Below, one piece after another: positions 3,875 to 6,470 of a stretch of 28,160 bases of DNA. Origin of the DNA: a virus (taxonomy: Duplodnaviria > Heunggongvirae > Uroviricota > Caudoviricetes); IMG/VR virus record IMGVR_UViG_2879765931_000002; one strand, given 5' to 3'. The first letter of the stretch is position 1. Each line of letters starts with the position of its first letter. Below the pieces are notes generated by a model. It ran no database searches. It was not told the origin of the DNA and saw only the letters and a list, made by a program, of their open reading frames with translations. A program made the position numbers and the translations under genes.

Positions 3875-4046
3875 TATTGGCTACGTAATTAAAACAGAAA
3901 ATAAAGAAACCCCATTCACTGTAGTTGATATCGACGGTCTATCAGGAAACTTTAAAACTCTTGTTGAAGGTGCCACAAAAATGTGCCTAGTTTACATCGG
4001 AAATAATCTGCCCGCAGAAAAAAAGCCGAATTTCTGGCAAATCTGA
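3875..4046 (+). pseudogene. 3' fragment (56 codons) of an 81-codon small gene split by IS600; the 5' fragment is at 6038..6114 on the minus strand
   Basis: After the IS end the frame reads IGYVIKTENKETPFTVVDIDG...NFWQI*. Joining it to the 6114..6038 fragment through a single TAT restores one in-frame ORF. Confidence 0.7.
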
Positions 4047-4085
4047 TTGCAATGAAATTAAAAGGTGAAATCTGAAAAAAAGAAA

Positions 4086-4104
4086 GCCTGCACAATGTGC
4101 AGGC
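4086..4104. terminator. Hairpin GCCTGCAC-AAT-GTGCAGGC flanked by A-run upstream / T-run on the opposite strand; candidate bidirectional terminator
   Basis: Perfect 8-bp stem read directly; AAAAAAAGAAA immediately 5' on the plus strand. Confidence 0.4.
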
Positions 4105-4174
4105 CTGAGTGAAGAACCTGGGACATTTATTCATCACTCGCAGTAATTTTAATCTGAGTTGAGGTTAAAAAACA

Positions 4175-4819
4175 ATGAGCACAAAACCACTCTTCCTGTT
4201 ACGGAAAGCGAAAAAATCATCCGGTGAACCTGACGTCGTCCTGTGGGCAAGCGACGATTTTGAATCGACCAGCACCACTCTGGACTATCTGCTCGTTAAG
4301 TCAGGTAAAAAACTGAGCAACTATTTTAAAGCTGTTGCCACAAATTTTCCTGTCGTTAATGACCTTCCCCCTGAAGGTGAGATCGATTTTACCTGGAGTG
4401 AACGCTATCAACTCAGCAAAGACTCCATGACATGGGAACTAAAACCGGGAGCAGCGCCAGACGACGTTCACCACCAGGATAATGCTCAAGAAACCAAAGA
4501 ACTGGCGGGAGGCCAGGAAGAAAACGCGCAGGCAGACGCCCACGAGGATTGCCAGGATTGCGAAGTCTCTGTAGCCACTTTGCGGTTCACACAGCGTCTT
4601 CTGCACATTTTTACGTATGCTGCCGGGGATCGGAAATACCTGCATCATGCCACCCGTGAACAACGCAAACACATTACTGCTCTTGAGATGGATCAGGAAA
4701 ACAGCTATGTCCAGAATCTGCTGTTGGCCATACGCGGCATGGCAGAACCGACAACTCTGGATAATGCCGCCCTGCTCCGCCTGACTGATGCAATTAAGGC
4801 TGAGGTGTACTGGCAATAG
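4175..4819 (+). CDS. Hypothetical protein with an acidic central segment; 3' end truncated by IS600 (last 6 codons and stop come from the IS end)
   Basis: Good RBS (GAGG 9 nt upstream of ATG at 4175). 214-aa ORF; IS600 terminus begins at 4801, so native C-terminus is lost. No family recognised. Confidence 0.5.
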
Positions 4820-4843
4820 CGGACACTACCATTTGTTCTTTTT

Positions 4844-5635
4844 TTAAGCAGCTATCTGATGATATTTTTCCCTGAAGGCTGCCGGGGAGATATTCCCCAG
4901 ACGAGAGTGACGACGCTGACGATTGTAGAAAATCTCAATGTATTCCCGTATTACTGAGATGGCTTCATCCCGGTTATTAAAACGATAGTGGCTCAGGCTC
5001 TCATTTTTCAGCGTTCCCCAGAAGCTTTCCATCGGAGCGTTGTCGTAACAGTTACCTTTACGCGACATTGATGTTTTCAGACCAAACTGCTCCTGTATGA
5101 CCCGGTAATCGTATGCGCAGTACTGTGAACCTCGATCAGAGTGGTGGATTAGCCCGGCAGGTGGGCGCTGGCTCCTGAGCGCCATAAACAGGGCTTTACC
5201 TGTCAGCTCTTTTGTCATGCGCTCTCCCATGGCGTAGCCGACAATTTCGCACGTATAAACATCTTTGATGCCAGCAACATACGTCAGGTCCGCCACCCAG
5301 ACCTGATTTGGTGCTGTAGGAGCGAACGTCTGGTTCAGCAGATTTGGCGCAACTGGCAGATTGTGGTTCGGGTTCGTAGTCGCTCTGAACTTGCGTTTCT
5401 GCTTACAGCGTAGCCTCAGCTCCTTACGAAGACGTGCCAGTCGGTCACGACCAACGATGATGCCATTCTCTGCCAGCTCCGTCTGGAGCCGCCGGGTTCC
5501 ATATGTTTCGCGAGTGCGGATATGTGCCACCTTAATCTCCAGTTTTAGCCGCTCATCACTTTGTTTTCTGTCTGAGGGTTCATGCTGTACCCAGTTGTAA
5601 TAACCGCTCCTGGATACACCAAATACCTGACACAT
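4844..5635 (-). CDS. IS600 OrfB variant (263 aa, 9-aa deletion beside first catalytic Asp); probably inactive
   Basis: Alignment by eye against the three 272-aa copies in this window. Confidence 0.8.
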   Translation of the reverse strand: MCQVFGVSRSGYYNWVQHEPSDRKQSDERLKLEIKVAHIRTRETYGTRRLQTELAENGIIVGRDRLARLRKELRLRCKQKRKFRATTNPNHNLPVAPNLLNQTFAPTAPNQVWVADLTYVAGIKDVYTCEIVGYAMGERMTKELTGKALFMALRSQRPPAGLIHHSDRGSQYCAYDYRVIQEQFGLKTSMSRKGNCYDNAPMESFWGTLKNESLSHYRFNNRDEAISVIREYIEIFYNRQRRHSRLGNISPAAFREKYHQIAA

Positions 5636-5670
5636 CGCTTCAATGGGAAATTGTTGTCGCCATTGTTCGA

Positions 5671-5973
5671 TTAACGCGTATTTTTCAGCGACTCCTGTGC
5701 AAAATACGCTGTTGCTTTTTTTAATATATCTCGCTCAAGGCGAGCTTCATTTAACGCCTTACGCAGTTGCAGAATTTCAGATTCCAGTTCAGCCAGCGTG
5801 CGGGAACCAGGAGTACCGAGCCCTTTTCTGGCGGCGGTAACCCATTGTCCTAAAGTGCCTTCAGGAAGAGATAATCGGGAAGCGCCTTCACTGATCGAAA
5901 GTTGATTTTCAAGAACCGTTCTGACAGCTTCGGCTTTGAACTCTTTAGAGTAACGTTGGGTTTTTCTGCTCAT
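5671..5973 (-). CDS. IS600 OrfA (copy 2)
   Basis: 100 aa, one substitution (V->L) relative to the other copies. Confidence 0.9.
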   Translation of the reverse strand: MSRKTQRYSKEFKAEAVRTVLENQLSISEGASRLSLPEGTLGQWVTAARKGLGTPGSRTLAELESEILQLRKALNEARLERDILKKATAYFAQESLKNTR

Positions 5974-6037
5974 TATTAGCTCCTTCTGATGCCATTCTAT
6001 TTCAGGAAGGAGTGTCCGTTAAACTCAGGCTACCTCA

Positions 6038-6114
6038 ATATGCTTTCCTTCCAGGTAAACCTCGTGAACAATGTTATCAGTAGTTGCAACAGTGGCTTCA
6101 TAATTGGTGTTCAT
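6038..6114 (-). pseudogene. 5' fragment (25 codons, MNTNYEATVATTDNIVHEVYLEGKH) of the small gene split by IS600; 3' fragment at 3875..4046
   Basis: Strong RBS AAGGAGAAAAAC before ATG at 6114..6112; the frame runs straight into the IS600 end at 6037. Confidence 0.65.
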
Positions 6115-6188
6115 GTTTTTCTCCTTAATTAAGGTTGAGCGAATCCCTGCCATTGCTGGCATAAATTCAGTTTCGAATAGTCAGTTAA

Positions 6189-6470
6189 TTAAAGTTCGTG
6201 TGCCATCTGGTCTTTTTCGGCGCAGATTTCACTACAATATTTGCGTTTCTTTTTCCTCATCATGGTTCCGTGCATGTAAATAAGTTCAGCAGTGTAAGCC
6301 TTATCAGGGCTTACTTGTCTGTCACACAGGCCATAAGCACAGGGAATTAAATCGGGATCACCTTTCTGCTGGAGGTTTTTTTTGATTATCCATAACAAAT
6401 TTTTGATTCCGGTGTGTGTTATGGTCTGCTGAGGTGCAGAGGTAAAACAATAATCAAGCATAGGGTTCAT
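6189..6470 (-). CDS. Small Cys-rich hypothetical protein (CxxxxC ... CxxxC, possible zinc ribbon) downstream of rha
   Basis: 93-aa ORF, GGAG RBS, start 16 bp after the rha stop; no family recognised. Confidence 0.45.
   Translation of the reverse strand: MNPMLDYCFTSAPQQTITHTGIKNLLWIIKKNLQQKGDPDLIPCAYGLCDRQVSPDKAYTAELIYMHGTMMRKKKRKYCSEICAEKDQMAHEL

Follow-up and report, generated by a model that had tools for sequence, protein, structure and literature searches.

The genes described here lie at positions 3875-6470 of a 28,160-nucleotide stretch of Caudoviricetes DNA (IMG/VR record IMGVR_UViG_2879765931_000002), the whole of which is called the window below. Next to a gene for a Rha-type regulator, this region contains a split gene of 81 codons, an open reading frame (ORF) of 214 amino acids with an acidic stretch, and a gene for a cysteine-rich protein of 93 amino acids. 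A preliminary description of the window, which was made without database searches, was unable to place any of the three in a known family and considered the cluster the most plausible place for something undescribed. The ORFs, the cysteine pattern, the acidic stretch and the hairpin that it had pointed out are all present in the sequence, and profile searches and comparisons with intact relatives identified the genes as racC, the start of recE and ydaE, among which copies of the insertion sequence (IS) IS600 are found. The features of the locus, with their window positions and strand, are as follows.

2611-3874, + strand: IS600 copy 1 (IS3 family), with orfA at 2675-2977 and orfB at 3013-3831; 99.1-99.4% identical to the copies in Escherichia coli FDAARGOS_943
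3875-4046, + strand: 3' part of racC, about codons 27-81 and the stop codon of the shifted frame; 3875-3877 (TAT) hold one copy of the target duplication
4018-4024, + strand: run of seven A (A7), where racC underwent a -1 frameshift (A8 when intact), from a DNA comparison with E. coli A30 and FDAARGOS_944
4084-4106, no strand assigned: hairpin between racC and recE with a 10-bp stem, from a terminator scan and a fold of the intergenic region
4175-4819, + strand: the 214-amino-acid ORF, from the ORF list
4175-4800, + strand: 5' fragment of recE (exodeoxyribonuclease VIII), codons 1-208 plus two nucleotides, with the N-terminal Exonuc_VIII domain (PF06630, phrog_607, NF007259)
4801-6037, - strand: IS600 copy 2, with a 27-nucleotide internal deletion and an orfB of 263 amino acids
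6038-6114, - strand: 5' part of racC, with ATG at 6114 and the Shine-Dalgarno sequence AAGGAG upstream; 6038-6040 (ATA) hold the other copy of the TAT duplication
6189-6470, - strand: ydaE, long form of 93 amino acids, intact (NF041288), with a predicted single zinc site (C44, C49, C79, C83) and the C-terminal sequence DQMAHEL
7298-8561, - strand: IS600 copy 3, a simple insertion with the target duplication TAA at 7295-7297 and 8562-8564
21120-22383, - strand: IS600 copy 4, from repeat analysis

IS600 insertions and the ancestral gene order

Repeat analysis revealed four copies of one IS3-family element in the window, which were 98.5-99.7% identical to the copies that are annotated as IS600 in the E. 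coli FDAARGOS_943 record. The element has orfA/orfB transposase genes, ends of the form TGAGG...CCTCA and 3-bp target duplications, namely TAT for the insertion in racC and TAA for the one in the rha promoter. The 5' part of the 81-codon gene stops with ...GCATAT at one IS end (6038), the 3' part begins with TATTGG at the other (3875), and deleting one TAT copy at the join of 6038-6114 and 3875-4046 restored the frame of 81 codons. The duplication and the restored frame together point to a simple insertion of IS600 and a later recombination event with another IS600 in inverted orientation, by which positions 3875-4800 were flipped; copy 1 is one of the two inverted copies. The ancestral sequence of 2182 nucleotides was reconstructed by joining the reverse complement of 6038-7296 to 3878-4800, one copy of the TAT duplication being dropped. 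When compared with E. coli FDAARGOS_944, it formed a single collinear piece with 99.5% identity over 100% of its length, and because the joined sequence is collinear with this genome, the model of an insertion plus an inversion is correct. The matching stretch of FDAARGOS_944 is annotated as a Rha family regulator, a YdaE family protein, a frameshifted hypothetical protein and a RecE family exodeoxyribonuclease, and part or all of the reconstructed sequence was matched in 2437 of 5426 complete E. coli genomes. The proposal in the preliminary description that rha, the 93-amino-acid gene, the 81-codon gene, the hairpin and the 214-amino-acid ORF were co-directional before an IS-mediated inversion was therefore borne out by the duplication, the restored frame and the collinear relative.

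The flanks of the IS600 copy that truncates recE could not be matched as a target duplication (ATG versus GCC; 2610/2611 and 4800/4801), and its other side adjoins a truncated tail-fibre-assembly gene (1992-2636). Because there is no matching duplication and the neighbouring gene is truncated, at least one further deletion or rearrangement must have occurred besides the inversion. Shigella flexneri SFBU1023 carries the exact recE'/IS600 junction in the same arrangement. A further insertion affected the promoter. In the intact relative, TTGAAA-17-TATAGT is the only sigma70-like match in 2.2 kb and lies 6 nucleotides upstream of the first of two RNA genes that precede rha, which are described below. 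IS600 copy 3 divides its -35 element (TTGAAA, 8586-8581) from its -10 element (TATAGT, 7296-7291), and the rha-ydaE-racC-recE operon is therefore without its promoter. As a side observation, orfAB of this copy has the same orientation as the operon, and read-through could occur.

Assignment of the three genes

The 214-amino-acid ORF matched PF06630 (Exonuc_VIII) with an E value of 1.3e-67, residues 2-182 of the ORF covering positions 1-203 of the 203-position profile, and phrog_607 with an E value of 1.5e-75; it was 97% identical to residues 1-209 of the 1047-amino-acid RecE of E. coli A30. The exodeoxyribonuclease VIII equivalog NF007259 scored 196 bits on positions 1-199 of 877, far short of the cut-off of 1269 bits for a full-length RecE, and the C-terminal nuclease domain is missing. 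Without this domain, the fragment cannot be exonuclease VIII. The ORF is chimeric; recE ends at 4800, while codons 210-214 (EVYWQ) and the stop codon (4817-4819) come from the terminal inverted repeat of IS600. Far from being unassignable, it joins the first 209 codons of recE to an IS600 end and is a fragmentary pseudogene that derives from an ordinary gene for phage recombination. For this ORF, the homology is of the confident kind that the preliminary description had itself named as grounds for refutation. The acidic stretch that had attracted attention (12 D/E versus 1 K/R in 37 residues; isoelectric point 4.05) is unchanged in the RecE of A30 and sits in a variable linker region that differs from that of K-12. 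A tblastn search with two full-length RecE proteins found no recE in the window outside the 5' fragment, and there was no RecT match within the window, whereas recT is present downstream in the intact relative in E. coli A30. A sub-threshold Rfam snoRNA match was also seen inside recE.

The rejoined 81-codon gene could also be assigned, as it matched PRK09790 (E 2.1e-41) and phrog_4778 (E 2.8e-42), and its product was 82% identical to RacC of E. coli K-12 over residues 1-78. The NCBIfam RacC profile gave 140 bits, below its 171-bit cut-off, and covered positions 1-78 of 91, so a full-length product is lacking. The intact gene reads GCAG-A8-GCC, whereas both the window and FDAARGOS_944, in which the gene is annotated as 'frameshifted', have A7. 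In the unshifted frame, racC would finish with ...AEFLANLIAMKLKGEI and a stop codon at 4073-4075, and the gene would encode 91 amino acids; the frameshift swaps the last 16 residues (AEFLA...KGEI) for PNFWQI. In the AlphaFold model of an intact RacC homologue, which has four strands and two helices (predicted local distance difference test, pLDDT, 74), this change deletes the helix at 72-87. The 81-amino-acid A7 form, which ends in ...KKPNFWQ[LIR], was seen in six database clusters and two finished genomes, and because the ending occurs in six clusters, the A-run is a recurrent site of slippage or error. A form of 88 amino acids in the other frame also exists. The 81-codon gene is racC, a gene whose family comprises 106 database clusters, and it was inactivated twice, by the A8 to A7 frameshift and by the insertion of IS600.

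The third gene is the only one of the three with an intact frame. On the 93-amino-acid protein, NF041288 (YdaE_coli) scored 87 bits at residues 42-93 against a cut-off of 35, which does not agree with the view that this protein belongs to no known family, and phrog_6751 matched with an E value of 3e-46; the database's precomputed matches place PF27493 on all nine of nine close homologues. YdaE of K-12, which has 56 amino acids and is annotated as a 'zinc-binding protein', aligns with residues 42-93 at 58% identity, and the long form adds a helical N-terminal extension of about 40 residues in the model. The gene is an intact long-form ydaE. An origin of the extension from KilR was considered and rejected (BLASTP E 1.9).

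The cysteines of the 93-amino-acid protein stand at positions 8, 44, 49, 79 and 83, i.e., in the arrangement CX4C...CX3C, and the family as a whole follows the pattern C-x2/4-C ... YC-x3-C-A-E-x-DQMAHE. Among 29 YdaE sequences, C79 and C83 were invariant, C44 and C49 were conserved in at least 90%, and the C-terminal tail was conserved. An exhaustive search of 1.84 billion representatives with a profile returned only 24 clusters, and YdaE is thus a small enterobacterial phage family. Two long proteins with repeated matches to the YdaE profile (P0124 and P0139) were examined as possible repeat proteins of the MYM/FCS type and rejected, because Pfam identified one as an Ig-like/He_PIG protein and the other as an array of C2H2 zinc fingers, and the matches were at the level of the pattern. 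PMC6892955 gives YdaE as an SmtA-like zinc-binding Rac protein, with attribution to Blindauer et al. 2002 (Mol Microbiol 45:1421; listed in PMC10612145), who are reported to have shown for the E. coli protein that four cysteines bind a single zinc ion. In line with this, YdaE shares with SmtA the ligand pattern CX4C...YCSExC, and its beta-hairpin and helix may form a treble-clef core like that of SmtA, with 36% identity over 39 structurally aligned residues. The model had a pLDDT of 83, with more than 90 in the finger core. With Foldseek, it found only weak matches to eS26 (E 0.15 or worse, template modelling score about 0.35), and further weak resemblances were to eL24, YacG and the FCS and TRASH fingers. 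Two Pfam matches below the gathering thresholds, Rtr1/RPAP2 (3e-4) and Metallothio_Pro (0.044), can be read as hints only. Based on the model and the conserved cysteines, YdaE would be a treble-clef finger of the SmtA type, with four cysteines that bind one zinc ion.

The Rac-type operon and its decay

The gene order of the locus is not peculiar to it. Among the best 80 loci of at least 594 IMG/VR contigs that encode a YdaE relative, ydaE had the N-terminal domain of RecE downstream in 76, RacC lay between the two in 50, and KilR was directly upstream in 48; the order ydaE-racC-recE is conserved. In one YdaE subgroup, which makes up 24 of the 80 loci, a different ORF of 117 amino acids replaces RacC (in one locus, L014, at 2845-3198). 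The strand pattern of this ORF faintly recalls that of RacC, of which it may be a distant analogue. The sequenced phages Rac-SA53 and vB_EcoS-683R6 carry the module with the annotation YdaE / RacC / exodeoxyribonuclease VIII. In E. coli A30, a Rac-type prophage at ttcA contains cI-like, cro-like and ydaT genes and, further on, sieB, dicB', rha, ydaE, racC (91 amino acids), recE (1047 amino acids), recT, ralR, DUF1187, xisR and intR. This closest intact relative is located at the Rac attachment site beside ttcA.

Compared with the early-left operon of the K-12 Rac prophage, kilR-ydaE-racC-recE-recT-ralR, the window has the same gene families in the same order and spacing, as well as the hairpin between racC and recE and the recE ribosome-binding region. 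After reconstruction, racC ends about 100 nucleotides upstream of the recE start, as in K-12. K-12 and A30 preserve the stem of the hairpin by a compensatory change of A-T to G-C. In the consensus scan, the hairpin qualified as an intrinsic terminator in one orientation only, antisense to the operon, where a T-run follows on the window - strand. The two operons also differ. In the window, rha and genes for IsrK-like and C4 RNAs stand in the place of kilR upstream of ydaE, YdaE is the long form of 93 rather than 56 amino acids, and the recE allele is of the 1047-amino-acid type with an acidic linker and an N-terminal domain that is 60% identical to that of K-12 RecE. Moreover, IS600 has disrupted both racC and recE, and recT is missing.

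Taken together, we consider that the locus is a decayed operon, the early-left (recombination) one of a lambdoid prophage of the Rac type, in a chromosome of the Shigella flexneri type, which retains ydaE, racC and the start of recE and was broken by IS600 and an inversion; its probability is, in our estimate, about 0.93. The ancestral operon had a promoter, the IsrK-like small RNA, the C4 RNA, rha, ydaE, racC, the hairpin and recE on a single strand, followed by recT, ralR, xis and int as in the intact relatives. The racC gene was hit by the A8 to A7 frameshift and by IS600, and recombination between this IS600 and another one in inverted orientation then flipped the segment that holds the 3' part of racC and the 5' part of recE. 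Because the promoter is split, racC and recE are broken and recT is gone, the cluster appears to be non-functional in this genome, with coding frames that are intact only in ydaE and rha.

The racC-recE pair has been studied for its relationship with a retron. Bobonis et al. (bioRxiv 10.1101/2020.06.22.160242) found RacC of K-12 to be the strongest blocker of RcaT, the toxin of retron-Sen2; RecE degrades the multicopy single-stranded DNA of the retron and thereby triggers RcaT, and the authors described racC-recE as a linked blocker-trigger pair. According to the literature, RecE and RecT of intact phages carry out double-strand-break recombination. Since RecE triggers RcaT and the neighbouring RacC blocks it, racC-recE forms a linked pair for counter-defence and recombination. 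Similar to the RacC-RecE pair of retron-Sen2/Eco9, the 81-codon gene of the window lies directly upstream of recE, and its product has the 82% identity given above to the K-12 RacC that was tested. Unlike that pair, RacC of the window is without its last 16 residues (the predicted helix 72-87) and is split by IS600, and the nuclease part of RecE is absent. Judged by these lesions, neither the blocker nor the trigger would be able to act in this locus. The suggestion in the preliminary description that such an early region might carry counter-defence functions thus holds for one gene, racC, whose product is the published RcaT blocker, but the function had already been described and this copy is inactivated. 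A related observation was made in E. coli FDAARGOS_943 (9075-13400), in which independent IS600 insertions occur elsewhere in racC and recE, together with an IS1 in ydaE; the insertion sites were compared with window positions 4710, 4800, 6037 and 6068-6073. That insertions have struck this blocker-trigger pair more than once may be due to chance in IS-rich genomes or reflect selection.

Selection also underlies one alternative to plain decay, in which the N-terminal fragment of recE is kept as a functional stand-alone protein and the loss of the nuclease was selected, e.g., to avoid triggering retron-type abortive infection. RecE is a retron trigger, and three related strains all retain the 5' end of recE, but the point at which the 3' end is lost differs between them: codon 209 in the window, codon ~180 in FDAARGOS_943, where recE stops at another IS600, and beyond ~558 codons in FDAARGOS_944, where it is annotated as 'incomplete'. 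Moreover, phrog_6528, a profile of 348 positions from shorter proteins labelled 'exonuclease', matches the same N-terminal domain. Against this, truncation points that differ between strains are what is expected of random decay, the C-terminus of the 214-amino-acid ORF arose by accident where the frame runs on into the inverted repeat of IS600, and the fragment was inverted out of its operon into a segment (3875-4800) where a promoter scan found no promoter-like site. IS-mediated pseudogenes are abundant in Shigella genomes. We give the idea of a retained fragment a slim chance.

Very improbable, in our opinion, is the view that the trio is an undescribed cluster for host takeover or counter-defence. 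K-12 RacC does have counter-defence activity, YdaE has no known biological role, PDB sequence searches gave nothing meaningful for any of the three proteins (best E 1.2, 0.26 and 1.0), and no fold could be assigned to the RacC model from a Foldseek search of the PDB (best E 0.58). All three proteins, however, belong to named and annotated families, and public records read YdaE / RacC / exodeoxyribonuclease VIII; the RacC-RecE relationship has been published, two of the three genes are pseudogenes here, and the PADLOC profiles did not match any of the four proteins searched at E values up to 0.1. At the other extreme, the small ORFs could be spurious, i.e., chance frames in prophage debris, as they are short and two of them are disrupted. 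This reading, to which we attach next to no credence, is refuted by conservation: the YdaE relatives on at least 594 viral contigs, the 106 RacC clusters and the conserved order ydaE-racC-recE all speak against it, as do the Shine-Dalgarno sequence before each start and the confident AlphaFold2 models of RacC and YdaE. The decayed Rac-type operon is accordingly an ordinary locus that was already known, and all three of its genes had been named before.

The role of YdaE within such operons deserves separate consideration. A protein of 124 amino acids (P0125, one representative) joins KilR and YdaE in a natural fusion, in which the KilR portion shares 43% identity with KilR of K-12 (E 1e-18), and kilR and ydaE overlap by one base in K-12. 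The fusion and the overlap together suggest a link between YdaE and the host-takeover part of the operon, and KilR and YdaE may, with low confidence, be functionally linked. YdaE is most likely a small protein-binding accessory of the host-takeover operon that is coupled to KilR where kilR is present. A bolder idea, which we regard as unlikely though worth stating, is that YdaE is a new kind of small zinc-finger protein for host takeover, with the cell-division inhibitor KilR or the N-terminal domain of RecE as its partner, and that DQMAHEL is its interaction motif. Such a role is allowed by the fusion, by the overlap of the genes in K-12 and by the position of ydaE upstream of recE in nearly all of the 80 loci.

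The rha region, the wider window and the significance of the locus

Upstream of ydaE, the following features overlap in the region of the Rha ORF.

6487-7329, - strand: 'Rha' ORF of 280 amino acids (280/282 as annotated), from the ORF list
6487-7041, - strand: probable true coding sequence of the Rha-family (antirepressor-like) protein, 184 amino acids, with ATG at 7041 (Phage_pRha) and the Shine-Dalgarno sequence GAGG 8 nucleotides upstream
7096-7183, - strand: gene for a C4-type antisense RNA inside the Rha ORF (Rfam RF01695)
7208-7284, - strand: gene for an IsrK-like small RNA with its own terminator inside the Rha ORF (Rfam RF01394)

The start of the Rha ORF lies within IS600, its first residues are derived from the IS, and the two RNA genes fall in its 5' third. 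The match to Phage_pRha (E 7.5e-31) covers residues 117-201 of the ORF. Both RNA families were matched over their full length, C4 (RF01695) with 75.7 bits against a gathering threshold of 45 (positions 1-87) and IsrK (RF01394) with 61.5 bits against 50 (positions 1-77), and the Pfam match 'Phage_ASH' (residues 12-105) overlies these RNA genes. Both the public annotation and the preliminary description take the two RNA genes as the N-terminal 'Ash' part of a 282-amino-acid Rha protein. The 12-nucleotide loop of the C4 RNA pairs with 7062-7048 at -19.8 kcal/mol, a value that no other site of the operon reached and only 1 of 1000 shuffles equalled; its target is the GAGG that lies 8 nucleotides upstream of the in-frame ATG at 7041. 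Translation of the true Rha-type protein probably begins at 7041 and yields 184 amino acids, and the 'Ash' N-terminal part of the annotated 282-amino-acid Rha proteins is probably an annotation error. The arrangement resembles immI of P1/P7 (c4 antisense RNA-icd-ant) and isrK-orf45-anrP of Gifsy-1 (PMC4825925) in that the C4 and IsrK-like RNAs lie directly upstream of an antirepressor-type gene, here rha. By analogy with c4/ant of P1, the complementarity of the C4 loop to the downstream rha ribosome-binding site predicts that the C4 RNA would regulate rha. Unlike in those systems, both types of RNA occur in tandem in the window, and the promoter is split by IS600. Further upstream of the rha promoter (8633-8837, - strand), STnc100 (29.9 bits) and DicF (28.6 bits) were matched below the Rfam thresholds, and both matches fit the dicB remnant that the E. 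coli A30 annotation places at the corresponding position.

The remainder of the window carries a gene for an IpaH-type E3 ligase (NEL and LRR_TTSS domains; 1-1812), Mu-like portal, protease and capsid genes (16109-20879) and a Mu transposase A gene (22381-24015). A second repeated element is present in two copies of about 1.3 kb (9059-10390 and 14045-15376), whose 300-nucleotide cores are 100% identical, and one of the copies contains an ORF with an integrase core (rve). The window as a whole fits a mosaic of prophage remnants that is typical of Shigella.

The locus illustrates in textbook fashion how insertion sequences break down a prophage in Shigella, and its value for discovery is small. 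Its analysis is of use in that the recE fragment and the broken racC need not be carried forward as candidate new genes, and in that it documents that the anti-retron gene racC and the trigger gene recE were hit independently by IS600 in related strains. It also flags that the 'Ash' part of the 282-amino-acid Rha proteins coincides with the IsrK-like and C4 RNA genes, an internal promoter and a terminator, a probable misannotation that merits correction. YdaE is a widespread phage protein; its suggested role in host takeover, if true, would concern the family in general rather than this decayed copy.

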